From: a virus
Lineage: Duplodnaviria > Heunggongvirae > Uroviricota > Caudoviricetes
Length of the DNA: 28,156 nucleotides
Reading direction: 5' to 3' (one strand)
IMG/VR virus record: IMGVR_UViG_2802429240_000006
Coordinates: 1-28,156 of that record
Part shown: positions 3,830-20,403 of the stretch, piece by piece
How the letters are laid out: each line of letters starts with the position of its first letter
How positions within the stretch are numbered: position 1 is the first letter of the stretch
Notes under the pieces: model-generated
The model's input: only the letters and a program-made list of their open reading frames with translations
Database searches by the model: none
What the model was told of the DNA's origin: nothing
Position numbers and translations under genes: made by a program

Positions 3830-4619
3830 GACGCTGTATGAGGTTCTGACGGATGCCGTTAACTACTACGTAAATCACGGGTGGGATAGCGAAAAATCAT
3901 TGCTCGAATGGTGCCGGAAACTCCGTGTAGCCGCTCAGCGAGAAACCCCTGATGATACCGTAGCCAGAAAACACCTCACCGCTATCTACAGCCGTCTTGT
4001 CATCGACGGCGGGGCATTACGGGATCAGCCTCCTGACGGCCCTAAAAAAATCACTGTTGAAAAACTGAAACCTGAGTTTCGTAAGGAACTCGACAGGCGA
4101 ATTTTCGCCAGTGCCAACCTGATAAAACTCAACCGCGAACAGGCTATCGAGAAAACCATACAGCGTTTTCAGGGATGGGTTACGTCCATTCCGCCTGACG
4201 GGGTAAGCGAAATTGATCGCCGGGAAGTGAAGTCCGGTTTTCAGAAGTCCGTGAAGGATATGGATTTTATCAGTCGCCGGGTGGCAATTGATCAGGGGCA
4301 TAAGCTGGCAAGCAACGTTAAGTATCTGCTGGCTGTTCAGAGTGGAGCGATTGCTCTGCGCTGGCATTCTAACTGGCGGCGTCCGGGCTACAAATACCGA
4401 CAGGACCACAAAGAGCGCGACGAGAAAATTTATCTCCTCCGCGATTCGTGGGCGCTGGAGCAGGGGCTGATTAAGCCCGTATATGGTTTTTATGACGAAA
4501 TCACTGCTGCCGGGGAGGAGGTTTATTGCAGTTGCGATGCACTGCCGATCTACGCCCCTCAGAAACTACCCGACGAATTTTTAACGGAGAAGGGCAAACG
4601 TGAGTTTAACCGAGCTTGA
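3786..4619 (+). CDS. Putative head morphogenesis / minor head protein
   Basis: ORF in the frame of track ORF 3648..4619; ATG 3786 chosen (overlaps portal end), GTG 3807 is an alternative start; position after portal. Confidence 0.4.
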   Translation: MAISSRAVRKKKRIRTLYEVLTDAVNYYVNHGWDSEKSLLEWCRKLRVAAQRETPDDTVARKHLTAIYSRLVIDGGALRDQPPDGPKKITVEKLKPEFRKELDRRIFASANLIKLNREQAIEKTIQRFQGWVTSIPPDGVSEIDRREVKSGFQKSVKDMDFISRRVAIDQGHKLASNVKYLLAVQSGAIALRWHSNWRRPGYKYRQDHKERDEKIYLLRDSWALEQGLIKPVYGFYDEITAAGEEVYCSCDALPIYAPQKLPDEFLTEKGKREFNRA

Positions 4620-5922
4620 AGTGGCAGAACGCATCAGGGACGGAACCGTACCGTCTCCGGTGAAATTCTCCAACATGTGGCTGGTGAATTTGCGAATAAC
4701 CGGAACCGGGCTTGCCTATCGCGCCGGGCTGAAAGAGCACGTCTGGCGTGATCCAAAGCTCTATCTGAACGAGGAGTTTTTAAGGCGATGCAATGGCCTT
4801 CCGGTTATCGCAAACCATCCTGACGACGCAGTTCTGACGGAGGAGGACTTTAAATCGCGGATCGTCGGTAGCGTCATGCTGCCGTATATCCGGGGTGATG
4901 AGGTATGGGCGGTGTGCCGCGTTTACCTCCAGAGCATTGTTGAAGAAATCACTGAGGGGGATGTTTCGACAAGCCCGTCGGTGGTGTTCAACAGCACATC
5001 AGGAAATGTGGAAGTACAGGAAGGTGACACCAATTTTTTAATCGAAGGCGTTCCTTTCCTTGTTGATCACATCGCCCTGGTGACGAAAGCCCACGGCTCG
5101 CTGGGCGTGTGGGATAAAGACCGGATCCCCGCAGGGGTTGAAGTGACAAATACAGGTGAAATTGAGATGGAAAAAGAAGAACTCCAGGCCCTGTTACAGG
5201 GGGTGGTGAACGATGCCCTGAGCGGCATTAATCAGAAAATCGATGGAGTAGTCACGCGCATGGACTCACTGGAACAGCGGGACAAAGCGCGGGCGGATGC
5301 CGAAGAGCAGGCGAAAAAAGAGGCCGAAGAAAAGGCCAAAGCCGATGAAGCCGCAGAGGAACAGCGTAAAGCTGATGAAGCTGCGGCAAAGGAGGCGGAA
5401 GAAAAAGCCAAAGCTGACGAGGCAGCAGCCAAAGATGCTGAGGAGAAAGCAAAGGCTGATTCCGAAGCGGAAGAACAGCGTAAGGCCGACGAGGAGGCAG
5501 AAAAAGAACGCAATGATTCTGCCCTGGCAGAAGCGCAGGCAAAAGCCGACTCCGCATTCAGTGCCTGCGGTAAAAACGCGCCAGCACCGTTTTCTGGTGA
5601 AAATGCGCTGGACTACCGCAAGCGTGCGCTAATCGCTATGCAGAAACACTCTCCAGCACATAAGGACGTCAATATTCGCGCGATTGCGGATTCTGCAACG
5701 CTGGCTGTGCTTGAGGACGCAATTTTCAGTGCCGCCCGTCAGTCCATCGAAAAAGAAATGATGAGTACGCAGGGGCAACTGCATAAACGTATCCGCAACG
5801 ATGAAGCCGGGCGTCGCATTACTGAATATCAGGGCGATCCGAACGTCTGGCTGAGTGCCTTCAAAATTCCGGGGCGTCGTCTGGCAAAAATTAACACTCA
5901 AGGGAGCCTGAACAATGGCTGA
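4600..5922 (+). CDS. Putative capsid scaffolding protein (possibly protease-scaffold fusion)
   Basis: GTG start with GGAGAAGGG RBS; globular N-terminal domain followed by long A/E/K-rich coiled-coil repeat region; position before capsid genes. Confidence 0.45.
   Translation: MSLTELEVAERIRDGTVPSPVKFSNMWLVNLRITGTGLAYRAGLKEHVWRDPKLYLNEEFLRRCNGLPVIANHPDDAVLTEEDFKSRIVGSVMLPYIRGDEVWAVCRVYLQSIVEEITEGDVSTSPSVVFNSTSGNVEVQEGDTNFLIEGVPFLVDHIALVTKAHGSLGVWDKDRIPAGVEVTNTGEIEMEKEELQALLQGVVNDALSGINQKIDGVVTRMDSLEQRDKARADAEEQAKKEAEEKAKADEAAEEQRKADEAAAKEAEEKAKADEAAAKDAEEKAKADSEAEEQRKADEEAEKERNDSALAEAQAKADSAFSACGKNAPAPFSGENALDYRKRALIAMQKHSPAHKDVNIRAIADSATLAVLEDAIFSAARQSIEKEMMSTQGQLHKRIRNDEAGRRITEYQGDPNVWLSAFKIPGRRLAKINTQGSLNNG
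5290..5520 (+). repeat. Degenerate tandem coding repeats (~30-36 nt units) encoding EEKAKADEAA / EEQRKADEAA
   Basis: Read directly, e.g. gaagaaaaggccaaagccgatgaagccgca vs gaagaaaaagccaaagctgacgaggcagca. Confidence 0.6.
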
Positions 5923-6532
5923 TATTAACTTTCATCCGTTTAAAAACCGTGGAGCATTTGGTGGCCTTTTTAACGTCGAATCCCGTGGGCTGATGCAGGG
6001 GGATGCGCAGGATGATCCGGCAATTCGTCTGCAACTTTGCTCCGGACGACTGGACAGCAAAATCAGTGAACCGGTATGGGGTGGTGTCGGTGTTATCGAG
6101 TGCATCGCTCCCGCGAAAGACAGCGTTAACGGGGCGGTTATCAAGCAGGCCACGAAGGACGCCTGTAACGCATTTACAGTCTTTAATCAGGCATTTCATG
6201 GCATTACCACGCCGGATAATCCGGTGCCGTTATATCTCGCGGGTGGCTTTGTTCACTATTACCGCGTTGGCTCAGGCGCCCGCATTCCTCTCCCGGTCAG
6301 CGCAGAAGTTGTTGCGCTGGCTGATGGCAATAACACCGTTGCTGCCAGTGGTTTTGTGTGGGATCTGACGAAAAACGTGGTTGATGTTTATTCGGGAACG
6401 CCCGGAGCTAACCCGAAAGTGGACATTAAGTTGCTGATGGTTTCAGTTGACGGAAACCTGACGGTGAAAAAAGAGGACGGCGGTAACGTTGTCTGGGAAA
6501 TCGGTAAGCCGTGCGGCCTGTTTTTAATTTAA
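5915..6532 (+). CDS. Putative head structural protein (decoration or minor capsid)
   Basis: ATG with AAGGGAG RBS; 205 aa between scaffold and putative major capsid gene. Confidence 0.35.
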   Translation: MADINFHPFKNRGAFGGLFNVESRGLMQGDAQDDPAIRLQLCSGRLDSKISEPVWGGVGVIECIAPAKDSVNGAVIKQATKDACNAFTVFNQAFHGITTPDNPVPLYLAGGFVHYYRVGSGARIPLPVSAEVVALADGNNTVAASGFVWDLTKNVVDVYSGTPGANPKVDIKLLMVSVDGNLTVKKEDGGNVVWEIGKPCGLFLI

Positions 6533-15304: not shown

Positions 15305-16311
15305 TGCGTTATTACCGACTGGAAATTATTAATCCTAAAACAGGAAAGCCGCCAGTGGATTGCAATGGAAAACCCATTGGGCCTTTTGATACCAGTGAAA
15401 CACCAGGATGTGGGTTGCATGTTGAATTTGACTTTGAAGTAACTGGTCTGGATGTAGTCTGCTCGGGTACGATGCTGACTATCTATGGATTACCAATTGA
15501 CATGCTGAAGCAAAGCGTGAGTTTGCAGGGGTGTCTGGTCCGTATGAAAGCGGGCTTTGTTGAGGGATTGCCTTTGGCAAATCCACAGCAACAGGGTGAG
15601 GTTATTTATGGCGAAATTTATCTGGCCTATGCCAACTGGATCGGCACGAACCAGACCTTAAACCTGGTAATAAATCCAACCGTACGCAAAACAGATGATG
15701 GTAAACCGTTCTCTATCGAGGGGGAGGGGCTTAAAGGGGAAAAGGTTGGTGATGTAATCTCCCGTGCGTTGCAAAAGGCATTTCCGAATAAGTTGATCGA
15801 TTGTACTGTCAGCGACAGCCTCGTTTTGCCGGAACCGTGGAATGGAACCTACGAAGATATTGGCTCGCTGGCTATGGTCCTCCGTAGTGCTTCAATTGCA
15901 ATGATGCGCGATGAGAAATACAGCGGAATTGCCATCAGTATTCTTTCCGACAGAATACGAATTTACGATAACGCGTCAGCAAAGTGGGGTGAGCCAAAAA
16001 CAATTCATGCCCATGAACTGGTCGGGCAGCCGACATGGATAGCGCCGTTTACCGTCAGTTTCAAATGTCCTATGAGAGGCGATATCAGATGTGGTGATGT
16101 GGTTAAACTGCCGGAGGGGCTATATTCTGGCGCTGCGTCGATTGTGATGGCTAATACAACGGCACCCAGCGTTATCGCAAAAAATTCGACCACGTTTACC
16201 GGGAAATTTCTTGTGAAATCAGTCAGACACATTGGTTCGTATCTGACAGCCGATGGCGATGCCTGGGTGACGGTATTTGAGGCATATGCTGAGAACTGGG
16301 CGAGGGTGTAA
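15304..16311 (+). CDS. Putative baseplate hub protein
   Basis: 335 aa, gene order between tape measure and spike-like gene. Confidence 0.35.
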   Translation: MRYYRLEIINPKTGKPPVDCNGKPIGPFDTSETPGCGLHVEFDFEVTGLDVVCSGTMLTIYGLPIDMLKQSVSLQGCLVRMKAGFVEGLPLANPQQQGEVIYGEIYLAYANWIGTNQTLNLVINPTVRKTDDGKPFSIEGEGLKGEKVGDVISRALQKAFPNKLIDCTVSDSLVLPEPWNGTYEDIGSLAMVLRSASIAMMRDEKYSGIAISILSDRIRIYDNASAKWGEPKTIHAHELVGQPTWIAPFTVSFKCPMRGDIRCGDVVKLPEGLYSGAASIVMANTTAPSVIAKNSTTFTGKFLVKSVRHIGSYLTADGDAWVTVFEAYAENWARV

Positions 16312-17024
16312 TGTCAAACGCTCAAAAATTACCGTTTCTCCGAACGCTGTCGGAGATGATGACCAGTTCTGGTAACCAGCAAGCCGAGCTTAAAGGCCGC
16401 GAATTGCCCTGCCATGTTGTCGATGTCAGTGGGCAGATAGTGACCGTTCAGTTTGATATGTTGCCAGAGGGGATCAACTTTCCGCAGATAACAATCCCTG
16501 TCGCCACATTCCCGTATATCCGTTACCCGATACAGCCGGGGGATCGAGGAGTAACAATTGCCGCTGATGTATCCCTGCGCGGTGTGTCCGGATTGGGAAC
16601 CGGTATGGCGACGCTCTCTTACTCGATGTCGCTCACTCCACTGTTTTTCGTGCCACTGGCAAACAAGGACTGGTCCGACGAAGATCCGCAAAAAATCGTT
16701 TTGTACGGTCCGGATGGCGCGATCCTCAAAACAGAGGACGGCAGTAGCTCGGTAACGGTGGCACCGGAAGAAATCAGGCTAAAGTCGAAAGCTGTTTACC
16801 TCGAGGCCGAAGATATCTTCATGAACGGTCAAATTCACCTCAACGGACCGATCGTCCAGGACAAAGCCCAGATGAAGGATACAACCGCTTCGCTGATTGG
16901 CCCTCTCAAAGTCGAGAAGGATGCAGTTATCAACGGCGTGAGCGCCAGCGGTCACAGCCACGATGTGACTGGCGTTCAAAGCGGCAACAGCACGATCACG
17001 TCGAAGAAACCAAATCCGGGTTAA
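16311..17024 (+). CDS. Putative baseplate spike protein (gpV-like)
   Basis: 237 aa; C-terminal GHSHD motif reminiscent of the HxH tip motif of P2 gpV-type spikes; gene order. Confidence 0.5.
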   Translation: MSNAQKLPFLRTLSEMMTSSGNQQAELKGRELPCHVVDVSGQIVTVQFDMLPEGINFPQITIPVATFPYIRYPIQPGDRGVTIAADVSLRGVSGLGTGMATLSYSMSLTPLFFVPLANKDWSDEDPQKIVLYGPDGAILKTEDGSSSVTVAPEEIRLKSKAVYLEAEDIFMNGQIHLNGPIVQDKAQMKDTTASLIGPLKVEKDAVINGVSASGHSHDVTGVQSGNSTITSKKPNPG

Positions 17025-17062
17025 TACCGGTTCATTTCACTTTAAATACTACCCATAAAACG

Positions 17063-17100
17063 AAAACCCCGACTGCTGGCCCAGTCGGGGTTTTCTGTTT
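17063..17100 (+). terminator. Rho-independent terminator (potentially bidirectional)
   Basis: AAAA-CCCCGACTG-ctggcc-CAGTCGGGG-TTTTCTGTTT; 9 bp GC-rich stem, A tract upstream and T tract downstream. Confidence 0.7.
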
Positions 17101-17128
17101 CTGACCTTGAATAAGGCAAGGAGAAGTC

Positions 17129-17266
17129 GTGTTTGATTTTAGCAAACTGATTCGGGAGATTCGAGTTATGGCTGAAAAATTATCCACCTGGAAGTTTTTG
17201 CTTATTTGGTTGGTCTTTCTGATTCTGGCGTCTGGTTATTTTGTTGGCCAGATCCGATGGTGGTGA
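17129..17266 (+). CDS. Small hydrophobic (single transmembrane segment) protein, 45 aa
   Basis: GTG start preceded by AAGGAG at 5 nt spacing; translation VFDFSKLIREIRVMAEKLSTWKFLLIWLVFLILASGYFVGQIRWW; stop 8 nt before the next start; below the size cut-off of the ORF track. Confidence 0.4.
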   Translation: MFDFSKLIREIRVMAEKLSTWKFLLIWLVFLILASGYFVGQIRWW

Positions 17267-17273
17267 GGGCACG

Positions 17274-17621
17274 ATGAGAACATGGGGCCGCGTCACCGAC
17301 GCGAACGGCAACAAAAAATGGGTTGCTGTAGAATCTGATGCCAACGGTGATTTCTCCTACGGCTGGCTGACGACGCTCATTCAGACGTTAAAGCTGGGGT
17401 TGGGGGAGTCGCCGTTTTACGCGAATTACGGTATTCCAGCGCAGCAGTGCATCGTGCAGCAAATTTACCCGGACTACTATGTGAACATGGTTCAGCAACA
17501 GTTTGCCGGGTATTTTGCATCGCTGGCAATTTCAAAGGTAGATGGGGCAGAGAACCCCACCTATAACATCGATGTTGTGTTTTTTAATGGGACCAGTTAC
17601 CGGACGCAGGTTCCGGTTTGA
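17274..17621 (+). CDS. Putative baseplate wedge protein (gp25 / gpW-like)
   Basis: ATG at 17274 (M12 of track ORF 17241..17621) with GGTGAGGG RBS; 115 aa; GESPFYANYG resembles the GxxPFxxxxG motif of T4 gp25. Confidence 0.4.
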   Translation: MRTWGRVTDANGNKKWVAVESDANGDFSYGWLTTLIQTLKLGLGESPFYANYGIPAQQCIVQQIYPDYYVNMVQQQFAGYFASLAISKVDGAENPTYNIDVVFFNGTSYRTQVPV

Positions 17622-18157
17622 GGCAAGTTTTCGGGCATCAGTTGGGCCAGTGGCGTGTTAAGAAGTTCATCGCGTGGCATGACAATCCATCCACTTTTGC
17701 GTAGTAAGTGAATTGCCCATTCTGTGGTTATAACTGAGCCTGATTTATGGTGCTCAATGTGGGTAACCGAGCCGTTTCTGACGCGCATGATGATGTCAAC
17801 ATTCAGAGGGGATTGTGTGCTGGTGGTATCCTCGCGCAGTTTTTTCTCGCACTCGATGAAGTATCGGCGGATCTGGTGGCCTTTTTCGTTGCGCTCAACC
17901 ATCGCCAGCTCTTTGGCGGTGTCCAGGGTTAGGTGGTAGTCTTTAGCTGGTCTGCCTCTACCGATTTTTTCCCGATTTTGGGAAATAATCAAAAAGTCCT
18001 GATTTTCTACGAATTCATACTCGCTGATTCGCTCGGTGATCCATGTAGCAAAGCGTTTACCTACTTCGAGAAAGGCGTGCAGATCGCGAGCATTACAGAG
18101 AAGGATTGTTTCGTTTGAGACAGTTCCGTTGAAAACGGGGATCAGTTGGGTTGTCAT
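17597..18157 (-). CDS. Phage antirepressor (AntA N-terminal domain plus KilA-C-like C-terminal domain)
   Basis: Start at ATG 18155-18157 (M85 of the 270 aa track ORF) with AGAGG RBS; motifs NARDLHAFLEVGKRFATWI and GRGRPAKDYHLTLDTAKELAMV...RRYFIECEK typical of phage antirepressors. Confidence 0.75.
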   Translation of the reverse strand: MTTQLIPVFNGTVSNETILLCNARDLHAFLEVGKRFATWITERISEYEFVENQDFLIISQNREKIGRGRPAKDYHLTLDTAKELAMVERNEKGHQIRRYFIECEKKLREDTTSTQSPLNVDIIMRVRNGSVTHIEHHKSGSVITTEWAIHLLRKSGWIVMPRDELLNTPLAQLMPENLPQTGTCVR

Positions 18158-18430
18158 GATGACCTCTGTTTGTTTTCTTCGAATTACCACTATCTGAGTG
18201 GTGCCAGGAGGTTCGAAACGGCACAAACAAAGCCGCGGACTTATTCCCCTTTCGGGTGTTGTATTCGTCGCCCTCCCGACATTGATCGGGGATGTGACCG
18301 CACATGGTGCCATCACTAAATAGTAGGCATAAAAAATCCAACACTGACGGGGTTGGTTGTGACCGTGTTTGTTGAGGTTTCGACGCCTCATGCGCCCAAT
18401 CATACTCAATTGGGCGCGGTTGTAAAGAGC
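18158..18430 (-). promoter_or_regulatory. Long structured leader / control region upstream of antirepressor, containing a 9 bp perfect inverted repeat
   Basis: GCGCCCAAT-catactca-ATTGGGCGC at 18392-18417; further GC-rich hairpins; no convincing ORF. Confidence 0.4.
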
Positions 18431-18664
18431 TTAGTTAGCAATGAAAATTGAATTAAAGTAGTTACCATCTTTTGAGGCAATCACTTTACCTGAACTACGT
18501 GAAATAATGTTAACTCGCATATTTATTGTTGGGTTTGCGGTATACATCATAAATTTAAGTTTATAATTCCTTTCAAGCATGATTCGTTTGGATGGTGCTT
18601 GCTTATCAAAAAAATTAGTTGGTCCCATATTACCCGTGACTGAAAGGTTACAAGAGCTCGGCAT
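18431..18664 (-). CDS. Hypothetical small protein (77 aa) in AT-rich cassette; coding status doubtful
   Basis: ORF from track; no good RBS before the first ATG, internal ATG at codon 13 has a weak GGG; AT-rich like the lipoprotein gene. Confidence 0.3.
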   Translation of the reverse strand: MPSSCNLSVTGNMGPTNFFDKQAPSKRIMLERNYKLKFMMYTANPTINMRVNIISRSSGKVIASKDGNYFNSIFIAN

Positions 18665-18723: not shown

Positions 18724-19155
18724 TTATCGAAGCAGTATTGAATTCTTTTTCATTTTTTTTGATTCTTCCTCTGCTTCCCTTTTAATATCTTCTATTCTCT
18801 TTTGTTGTTCGCGTTCTTCTTTTTCTTTTTGAGCTTTTCTTTCATCTTCAGTCACAAAAACAACATGTACATCATTTGACCATCTGCCAGTTGATTGTAG
18901 ATAACCTTGAGAATATGAGCCATCAGATAATGTAGCGATTGCTGGTCGCTCAGTAAAATCATCTGAACCATAAATCATGCCACCTGTGTAATCAATTCTT
19001 GTGGCTTTAATTGCTCTGTGGCTATTTATAGTATTTAGTATTCTTTCATTTGTGTACCCACTAATTAACAAACCGTCGGCAAGGTTAGTTTGTTGTTCGT
19101 ATGGAACGCAGCCAACTACCGAAAATGAAATCAATAAAGAAATTAACTTTTTCAC
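18724..19155 (-). CDS. Lipoprotein with ER/K-rich charged C-terminal tail (accessory / moron gene)
   Basis: GTG start with AGGG RBS; signal peptide MKKLISLLISFSVVGC with lipobox VVGC, Cys followed by V (not D); C-terminus ERKAQKEKEEREQQKRIEDIKREAEEESKKMKK; strongly AT-rich relative to flanking genes. Confidence 0.65.
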   Translation of the reverse strand: MKKLISLLISFSVVGCVPYEQQTNLADGLLISGYTNERILNTINSHRAIKATRIDYTGGMIYGSDDFTERPAIATLSDGSYSQGYLQSTGRWSNDVHVVFVTEDERKAQKEKEEREQQKRIEDIKREAEEESKKMKKNSILLR

Positions 19156-19176
19156 AACTTACCCTTGAGATTAACT

Positions 19177-20403
19177 ATGTCAGAAATACCAATTACTATG
19201 ACCAGTGCGGGTGCGCAGCCTACGCCACCCAATGATTTGCTTGCGAATCTTATCACCAGAGTTGCTGAAAAAGTACCTGGATATACAGCCAACCTTCCGG
19301 CGGGACTTATTACAGACCTTGCCAGCACGGCAGTCGGGGCGCTGGCATTAATAGACCAGGCGCGGGTTGATCTTATTAACTCCGTAAGCCCATACGGCGC
19401 GAATATTCCGTTACTGATGCAACTCGGAAACATATATGGAGCACAGAAGGGATTAAGTACAAATACGGCTGTATACGTGGTGTTTGAGGCGTTGCCGGGG
19501 TTTGGTATCCCTAAAGGATTTGTGGTTGGAGACGGTAACTACCAGTATGCGGTTTCCCGCGATACGGTGGTGCCGGAAAGTGGGCAGACTGAACCAGTCT
19601 ACTGTGTGGCCACTACGTCAGGCTCATGGGCTGTACCGGAAGGGACCGTGACGCAGGTCATTACATCAGTACCCAAAGACCAGCCTGTAAAATGCACCAA
19701 CCTAACCGCAGGGATGCCAGGTCAGGAGGCGCAAACGTGGGCATCATACCGCGCCGAAGTCATGGAGTCCGGCATGTTTGGTGTGCAGGGAACACCGGAT
19801 TGCTTTAAAGCGATGCTCAAATCAGTAAGCGGTGTGCGAGAAAACCTGATTTCTTTCCGGCAGTCGTCGTTGGGGAAATGGGTTGCGGTTGTTGGTGGCG
19901 GTGATCCGTATGATGTGGCTTATGCGATTTACAAATCTGTACCGGATATTTCGAAACTGACCAACGATGTTAGCAATCCATCCGGTGCGGCAGTGGAAAA
20001 ACGCACGGTTTCAATAACCGTTTCGCCGGACGTTTATCAGGTGCCGTTCGTTATCCCGTCATCACAAAACGTCATGGTGCTAATCACCTGGAACACGGTG
20101 TCTGATGATTATGTTGATCCGGCGGGTATTGCTATGGCTGTGCAGCAAAACGTTGCTGATTACATCAATTCTATTGAAGTCGGTCACCCGATAAATCTGC
20201 TGCGAATCCAGGATATTTTTACCAGCTCCGTAAAATTGCTGGTTGATGCGACGTTGATCTCAACAATCAGTGTGAGCATTGGTATTAACGGCCATATTGT
20301 TCTTCCGGCAAAAGACACAAGCCTGGTTTATGGCGATACCTATTCCTATTTTTCAACGGTGGCATCACAGGTTCAGGTCAACAAGTATGCAATATCTGAC
20401 TGA
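19177..20403 (+). CDS. Putative baseplate protein J-like
   Basis: ATG 19177 (track start TTG 19165); ~408 aa; position before I-like and tail fiber genes. Confidence 0.5.
   Translation: MSEIPITMTSAGAQPTPPNDLLANLITRVAEKVPGYTANLPAGLITDLASTAVGALALIDQARVDLINSVSPYGANIPLLMQLGNIYGAQKGLSTNTAVYVVFEALPGFGIPKGFVVGDGNYQYAVSRDTVVPESGQTEPVYCVATTSGSWAVPEGTVTQVITSVPKDQPVKCTNLTAGMPGQEAQTWASYRAEVMESGMFGVQGTPDCFKAMLKSVSGVRENLISFRQSSLGKWVAVVGGGDPYDVAYAIYKSVPDISKLTNDVSNPSGAAVEKRTVSITVSPDVYQVPFVIPSSQNVMVLITWNTVSDDYVDPAGIAMAVQQNVADYINSIEVGHPINLLRIQDIFTSSVKLLVDATLISTISVSIGINGHIVLPAKDTSLVYGDTYSYFSTVASQVQVNKYAISD

Follow-up and report, generated by a model that had tools for sequence, protein, structure and literature searches.

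Why should a 45-codon gene for an apparent membrane protein lie between two baseplate genes of a tailed phage? The question arises from a sequence-only reading of the IMG/VR record IMGVR_UViG_2802429240_000006 (Caudoviricetes), of which positions 1 to 28,156 were analyzed here; this whole stretch of 28,156 nucleotides is referred to as the window. On its plus strand, a spike (V-like) gene for 237 aa (16311-17024; bppV in phage Rac-SA53, with a weak GpV Apex motif) precedes the small ORF at 17129-17266, and a gene for a 115-aa, weakly gp25/W-like protein of phrog_7986 (17274-17621) follows it. Both neighbors are given as context, and the second lies outside the cassette described below.

The small ORF and its predicted product

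The reading frame was confirmed from the sequence and its translation. It starts with GTG at 17129, ends with TGA at 17264-17266, and encodes the 45-aa peptide MFDFSKLIREIRVMAEKLSTWKFLLIWLVFLILASGYFVGQIRWW, a member of phrog_6632. The near-consensus ribosome-binding site that had been noted was found in place, AAGGAG at 17118-17123 on the plus strand with a 5-nt spacer to the GTG. The distance to the downstream gene, previously given as 8 nt, has to be corrected to 7 nt, with the next ATG lying at 17274; a GAGG run overlaps the stop codon of the small ORF. The description of the ORF as unlisted holds for the 60-aa track on which that reading was based and does not hold elsewhere. In Rac-SA53, whose sequence agrees with the window here at ~96% identity, the ORF is annotated as rac58, a hypothetical protein, some RefSeq E. 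coli genomes annotate it in the same way, and it has its own PHROG.

The claim of one clear hydrophobic segment was borne out on two scales, with a best 19-residue Kyte-Doolittle window of 2.16 at residues 24-42 and a mean Eisenberg H of 0.90 across residues 23-40. The N-terminal segment (residues 4-21) is amphipathic (muH 0.59). An AlphaFold model of the peptide, made with a small alignment (pLDDT 81.6), contained a helix at residues 4-17, a break, and a helix at residues 20-44, which are predicted to be an amphipathic helix and a transmembrane (TM) helix, respectively. The N side carries charges of +5/-3 and the C side one positive charge, and from this distribution we infer an N-in, C-out topology. 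The product would then reside in the inner membrane, with the amphipathic helix on the cytoplasmic side, a single TM helix, and a short C-terminal RWW tail (the peptide ends in QIRWW).

The phrog_6632 HMM matched the peptide over its full length (residues 1-45 on profile positions 1-45, E = 2.1e-28, 98.9 bits); examples of this family are rac58 of Rac-SA53, SEN34_23, and EC_CP1639_39 of CP-1639. A profile search of 1.84 billion protein cluster representatives returned 39 clusters, and homologs were found in phages of Escherichia, Salmonella, Yersinia, Citrobacter, Brenneria, Providencia, and Pseudomonas. Homologs at 40-60% identity keep the pattern ...SK(L/I)I.E.R.M.(E/Q)(K/R)L..W(K/R)F ahead of the TM segment, which is still hydrophobic at 40% identity. 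Pairwise comparison of the window copy with the copies of an Stx-phage, SPN3UB, and SEN34 gave dN/dS values of 0.08-0.38, and changes at second codon positions were the rarest class in every pair (zero against the Stx copy). The frame of 45 codons was intact in all 80 viral contigs that were recovered with the protein. These comparisons mark the ORF as a real protein-coding gene under purifying selection. The first impression was correct in this respect, and also as to the single TM segment, the good ribosome-binding site, the strong terminator upstream, and the closeness of the next gene.

Pfam and NCBIfam scans of the peptide yielded no family and no holin or toxin match, and a PADLOC scan yielded 0 families and no defense-system match. 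The peptide sequence was absent from the supplements of the O157 Sakai ribosome-profiling paper. A search of the full-text literature returned nothing relevant on the peptide, phrog_6632, the RWW ending, or Rac-SA53.

Distribution of the cassette and its late-gene junctions

The sole part of 16300-17700 that matched Stx and other lambdoid phages was a plus-strand segment at 17055-17266 comprising the hairpin, the leader, and the 45-codon ORF. The matches, at ~83-84% identity, extended from query position 756 or 764 to 967 (17055 or 17063 to 17266) and ended exactly at the stop of the ORF. Because homology between the different contexts starts at the hairpin, nothing upstream of it belongs to the cassette. 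The terminator hairpin belongs to the mobile unit and does not mark where the preceding operon ends.

In Stx and other lambdoid prophages, the cassette is located between the genes for endolysin and Rz. Among the 80 viral copies, Rz was the next gene after a 1-nt gap in 59, and the W-like gene followed after a 7-nt gap in 20. The homolog of Salmonella phage SEN34 lies between spike and wedge genes, and the gene downstream of it is unrelated to the W-like gene of the window. Pseudomonas siphophages carry a homolog in an island between the tail-tip genes K and I. Other homologs were found between a DUF2513 gene (after a Mu-F-like head gene) and a head gene of the Pa193_gp24 family, ahead of a T7-gp14-like gene on a podovirus-like contig, and amid ParE, RelB, and HicAB modules upstream of a terminase gene. 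The cassette was co-directional with the late genes in every context seen. No insert was present between rrrQ and rzpQ of the E. coli K-12 Qin prophage. When complete E. coli genomes were searched, 2,119 of 5,426 matched part of 17040-17290 and 900 matched at least 80% of this stretch. By this distribution, the ~210-bp cassette at 17055-17266 is mobile and polymorphic. An integron-type attC origin was considered and rejected, the hairpin being a near-perfect GC stem with A/T-tract flanks that lies upstream of the ORF and has terminator geometry; no integrase was seen in the cassette neighborhoods.

Related inserts occupy the R/Rz gap, where the same leader precedes a 60-aa family and TM ORFs of 43 and 28 aa follow in some genomes. 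The gaps of three E. coli prophages (L009, 2575-2901; L010, 2567-2895; L011, 2703-3051) contain small single-TM ORFs of 60, 43, and 28 aa, sometimes three in a row, and the 28-aa ORF has the ending IRWW and resembles a two-family chimera. In prophages Sp15 and Sp9 of O157 Sakai (L318, 2249-2964; L319, 758-1473), the endolysin-Rz gap is filled by an antirepressor gene and then a 48-aa TM ORF 7 nt upstream of Rz. A single accessory region upstream of a terminase gene (L014) holds three cassettes of hairpin plus small TM ORF, belonging to two families (4001-4135, 4703-4879, and 6229-6384) and interleaved with ParE/RelB-type toxin-antitoxin pairs.

Comparison of relatives identifies the V/W junction of the window as a polymorphic cassette slot. 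The W-like protein is encoded at 77-100% identity in 80 viral contigs, 20 with the 45-codon ORF and 60 without it. In close relatives that lack the ORF, the same hairpin and leader are followed by other small TM ORFs or by tandem combinations, the alternatives at V/W including VINFSGGDW... (53-55 aa) and MQPNSSAPKDKF... (65 aa). Distant relatives have no insert at this junction, the V stop overlapping the W-like ATG. Absence from close relatives with conserved flanking genes had been named as a finding that would speak against the ORF. Such absence was formally observed; the ORF was never found disrupted where present, and its absence is due to cassette exchange and polymorphism.

The resemblance of the downstream gene to gp25/W is weak. 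Its structure model (pLDDT 76.6) had T4 gp25 chains as the top full-length Foldseek matches, but these were weak (E 0.08-0.3, TM ~0.34), and a Pfam scan of the 115-aa protein gave no match. Convergent with this gene and overlapping its 3' end by 25 nt is ant, an AntA-type antirepressor gene (18154 to 17597). Read-through from ant, if any, would run antisense over the small ORF up to the bidirectional terminator. Between a sigma-70-like promoter site (18426 to 18399) and ant, Rfam gave a match to sRNA-Xcc1 (RF02221; 18195-18280, minus strand) with 70.9 bits, which exceeds the gathering score. A 143-aa ORF at 18724-19155 on the minus strand has a lipoprotein signal, MKKLISLLISFSVVGC, a Lys/Glu-rich C terminus, and a weak JetC-like match in PADLOC (E = 1e-4); this ORF and ant make up an insert on the minus strand that separates the W-like gene from a Baseplate_J-like gene (19165-20403). 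As the Sp15 and Sp9 gaps and the window show, cassette slots repeatedly bring antirepressor genes and small TM ORFs together. The record PP818812.1, "Actinobacillus phage vB_Apl-pPE4," is 96.9% identical over 16300-17700, and its recorded host looks doubtful.

Leader hairpins and the putative antisense promoter

The strong terminator that had been recognized just upstream of the ORF was confirmed in a terminator scan as a 14-bp GC-rich hairpin (8 GC) at 17062-17095. It has an upstream A-tract and a downstream T-tract, which provide T-runs on both strands, and is classified as a bidirectional intrinsic terminator. Minimum-free-energy folds predicted, with moderate support, an additional short hairpin at 17105-17121 on the plus strand (CCTTG-N7-CAAGG), whose 3' arm lies over the Shine-Dalgarno (SD) sequence. 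Seventeen diverse family members share this layout of an A-tract, a GC hairpin, a T-tract ending ~30-35 nt before the start, and then a short hairpin overlapping the SD. In an alignment of 18 sequences, 94.8% of the cells of the terminator helix were paired, 7 of 13 pairs had changed on both sides, and the observed covariation score was reached by 0 of 500 shuffles. For the SD hairpin, 78.9% of the cells in the 18-sequence alignment were paired and 3 of 5 pairs were compensated, e.g. CCATG/CATGG and CTTCTG/CAGAAG. Judged by covariation in these alignments, the leader hairpins are conserved. Rfam returned no family for the leader region and only sub-threshold, terminator-driven matches.

The viral collection was also scanned with the hairpin pattern alone, independently of the ORF. 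From at least 120 loci, at least 108 distinct instances were obtained, with at least 51 distinct peptides of 38-60 aa, and all 51 peptides listed have a TM segment in the C-terminal half. Among the 51 cassettes listed, the peptide starts 33-41 nt after the hairpin in 46; the start codons are GTG in 28, TTG in 12, and ATG in 11, which makes 40 of 51 GTG or TTG. The RWW ending occurs in 33 of the 51 peptides listed, despite N-terminal halves from many unrelated families. A shared 5' leader and an often shared 3' end around a variable middle fit exchange by homologous recombination.

A putative extended -10 box, TGCTAAAAT, was predicted by comparison on the minus strand at 17136-17144, within codons 3-6 of the ORF. 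All 15 cleanly aligned family members share the pattern TG.TA...T without exception. The invariant sites include third codon positions, codon 4 always ending in T and codon 5 always in C (Ser always AGC, Ile always ATC), compared with a TTT:TTC ratio of 8:8 at the comparison codon F23 in aligned family members. At codon 3, the residue varies (D, N, E, Y, H) and the middle A is constant. In all 51 cassettes listed, a minus-strand TAnnnT was found at ORF positions +3 to +16, mostly at +4 or +7. The same motif occurred in 0-9 of 51 in eight other 14-nt windows on either strand and in 12 of 51 on the plus strand of the +3 to +16 window. Matches to TATAAT of at least 5/6 were found in 29 of the 51 boxes listed and an extended TG in 22; the background rate of TGNTANNNT is 0.0008 per position. 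In these alignments, the minus-strand -10-like box is positionally invariant, and an antisense promoter inside codons 3-6 is probable. Its -35 region is poor (TCGAAT), and the site was not called in a generic promoter scan. Alternatively, the conservation of A...TA.CA could reflect a signal on the plus strand or a joint left by recombination.

Taken together, the putative -10 box and the minus-strand terminator predict an antisense RNA of ~75-80 nt at 17053-17131 on the minus strand. The predicted RNA has a fold of -33.2 kcal/mol (z = -5.1) and the shape of a classical sRNA; its 5' end is unpaired and complementary to the SD and start codon, and a small hairpin, the terminator hairpin, and a U-tail follow in that order. 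The Hfq-CRAC sRNA table of O157 Sakai (PMC4104026, Table S2) contains no peak at the Sp4 copy of the leader. Several described sRNAs were considered as the leader RNA and rejected by location: AgvB, AsxR, and Pas belong to the pR' moron site; among the Hfq-CRAC peaks of Tree et al. 2014, EcOnc12 was placed downstream of Rz, EcOnc33 antisense within an esterase gene, and EcOnc22 at another moron, one of 39 aa, in the I-J gap of Sp15. In that tail gap of O157 Sakai Sp15 (L317, 1991-2232), the 39-aa ORF is not a TM ORF and has its own hairpin and terminator. EcOnc22, an Hfq-bound sRNA candidate of ~85 nt antisense to it, is a loose precedent for antisense sRNAs in late-operon inserts.

Expression, function, and comparison with known systems

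A scan of 16000-18600 for plus-strand sigma-70-like promoters found none, and the possibility of one located between hairpin and SD was rejected, no conserved -10-like element being present there. With no plus-strand promoter and a hairpin upstream, transcription of the ORF would require polymerase to read through the hairpin. Rac-SA53, a near-identical phage, encodes Q, two holins, and the endolysin ~18 kb upstream of the ORF, and its late operon is Q-dependent. The holin-endolysin region of this phage (KU052037.1; L012, 22191-24628) has no annotated Rz/Rz1; genes for heat-labile enterotoxin IIa come after the endolysin, and pertussis-like toxin genes come after Q.

We propose that a promoterless cassette of ~210 bp has been inserted co-directionally into late-operon junctions, here between the spike (V) and W-like genes and in most E. 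coli prophages at the endolysin/Rz junction. Its control region would consist of the bidirectional terminator, the SD-pairing hairpin, a usually weak GTG or TTG start, and the -10 box on the opposite strand. The peptide would be made only when terminator-resistant late transcription, presumably Q-modified in this Rac-type phage, reads through the hairpin, and an antisense RNA of ~75 nt from the start codon to the terminator hairpin would silence leak-through. In the lysogen, expression of the peptide would be prevented by the terminator, the occluded SD, the weak start, and the antisense RNA acting jointly. A gene in a mobile cassette with gated, late-only expression appears to us the best description of the locus, with somewhat more speaking for it than against it.

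Layered repression is typical of toxic membrane peptides, and the product may therefore be membrane-active and potentially toxic late in infection. That it acts on the membrane late in the lytic cycle, e.g. in lysis timing or host killing, is a guess that may well be wrong, although it is far from idle. A precedent is hokW-sokW in Sp5, where, according to PMC8621323, a small toxin helps in the release of the prophage. The only link of the present protein to lysis is its position. As read from the sequence, the architecture favors a tightly repressed, late-expressed membrane peptide over an exclusion factor expressed in the lysogen. Antitermination is not known in SEN34, the Pseudomonas siphophages, or the podovirus-like contig, which also host the cassette, and a strong terminator inside an essential operon of such phages is hard to explain under the gating model.

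The evidence on translation and distribution bears directly on two other explanations. If the ORF were untranslated, its conservation would reflect RNA and terminator elements alone, and the leader and first codons are indeed conserved at the nucleotide level. This is highly improbable in view of dN/dS values well below 1, the rarity of second-position changes, a TM segment that stays hydrophobic at 40% identity, and a frame and length that are preserved in every copy. We see next to no case for an accessory of baseplate or tail assembly whose translation is coupled to that of the W-like gene, as the special link drawn in the sequence-only reading would imply. The position 7 nt upstream of the W-like ATG and the GAGG run over the stop would suit such coupling, but the 59 endolysin-Rz copies, the unrelated junctions elsewhere, the 60 of 80 phages that have the W-like gene and lack the ORF, and the unrelated gene downstream in SEN34 speak against it. 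A baseplate role is contradicted by the distribution of the cassette.

Two further explanations would place the action of the peptide in the lysogen. A type I toxin-antitoxin system proper, with a membrane toxin and an antisense antitoxin serving maintenance or abortive infection and not the lytic program, would account for the small size and hydrophobicity of the peptide, the predicted cis-antisense RNA spanning SD and start codon, the SD-occluding hairpin, and the location of some copies among ParE/RelB/HicAB modules. Such systems are common in prophages, and hok/sok is annotated in Rac-SA53. This explanation is nevertheless unlikely, given a unit that contains no promoter for a toxin mRNA and has a strong terminator directly upstream of the gene. 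The strict co-orientation with late operons in every context is as expected if transcription depends on them, and there was no Pfam or NCBIfam match to known type I toxins and no Rfam match to an antitoxin RNA. The other explanation is a classical moron expressed in the lysogen, with a role in superinfection exclusion or modulation of a host membrane protein, for which HK97 gp15 reportedly is a model. An insert that is present or absent between conserved late genes, a small product predicted to reside in the inner membrane, and the wide choice of small TM proteins in the same slots, which an arms race would predict for such cargo, are all in keeping with it. The promoter-gene-terminator layout is absent, however, the terminator being upstream and no sigma-70 promoter being found; the weak GTG/TTG starts and the occluded SD argue for repression in the lysogen, and PADLOC gave no match. 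A moron of this kind is rather improbable.

If the late-gated cassette is extended to the sister families, a broader and more tentative reading emerges, on which we would not insist. The cassettes may form a large, undescribed class of promoterless units, in which a bidirectional terminator and a cis-antisense sRNA gate interchangeable tail-anchored micro-proteins, most of them ending in RWW. By way of their conserved 5' leaders and 3' ends, they would be shuffled among late-operon junctions of gammaproteobacterial phages of the myo, sipho, and podo types. The logic of such a class would resemble that of type I toxin-antitoxin systems, but with late, antiterminated transcription as the trigger. 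Since different cassettes have the leader in common, a resident prophage could use its antisense RNA to silence the cassette, and perhaps a coupled gene, of an incoming phage. Should the antisense RNA not be real, the locus comes down to a small hypothetical membrane gene of the ordinary kind, apart from the unusual terminator linked to it.

The matter concerns many genomes, the ORF being present in ~900 of the 5,426 complete E. coli genomes and part of the hairpin-leader in ~2,100, including Shiga-toxin phages. In most cases the ORF is found within the lysis cassette, and it is missing from many genome annotations. Should the peptides act on the membrane and be released by late antiterminated transcription alone, they would be overlooked participants in lysis timing and, in Stx phages, could also affect toxin release. 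The combination of terminator, occluded SD, weak start codon, and antisense RNA would be a compact natural switch that is off unless antiterminated, and the codons under the -10 box would be a clear example of an amino acid sequence constrained by a promoter on the opposite strand.

The peptide family as such is already catalogued as hypothetical. The ORF is a full-length member of phrog_6632, a family without assigned function that is described without the linked hairpin and leader, the mobility, and the sister families found here. Searches of the literature and Rfam gave no description of the linked terminator/antisense region, of RWW-ended sister families, or of the cassette behavior. Like the holins, antiholins, and lysis accessories (lambda S, P2 LysA), the product is a small membrane protein encoded most often between endolysin and Rz. 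It differs from them in having no holin family match and in occurring in phages that already have holins; the cassette is also found far from lysis genes, ~18 kb away in this phage.

Short antisense RNAs that arise within or next to their target are found in temperate phages as P22 sar/ant, lambda OOP, and P1 c4, which the RNA predicted here would resemble. P22 sar, as summarized in a passage of PMC12197685, pairs over the ribosome-binding site of ant (immI). The Rfam similarity of the leader to sar is sub-threshold and terminator-driven (E = 0.15), and in the cassette, in contrast to these phage RNAs, the target is a membrane micro-protein and the unit is mobile. The type I systems hok/sok, ldr/rdl, tisB/istR, and zor/orz share with the cassette a small hydrophobic membrane peptide and a hairpin-sequestered SD; a cis-antisense RNA over the translation start that ends in a Rho-independent terminator, as predicted at ~75 nt for the cassette, would be a third common trait. 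Unlike theirs, the peptide mRNA of the cassette has no promoter of its own and a terminator directly upstream, and the peptide combines an N-terminal soluble helix with a C-terminal TM segment and has no sequence relation to known toxins, nor the predicted RNA to known antitoxin RNAs.

Morons in the sense of Juhala and Hendrix (HK97 gp15, lambda bor, lom) are likewise extra DNA between conserved late genes, and the cassette is similarly variable in its presence among close relatives and carried across unrelated phages. In morons, a promoter is located upstream and a terminator downstream of the gene, whereas the cassette has its terminator upstream, no promoter, and no downstream terminator. 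With this arrangement, the expression logic of the cassette would be opposite to the lysogen expression of morons.
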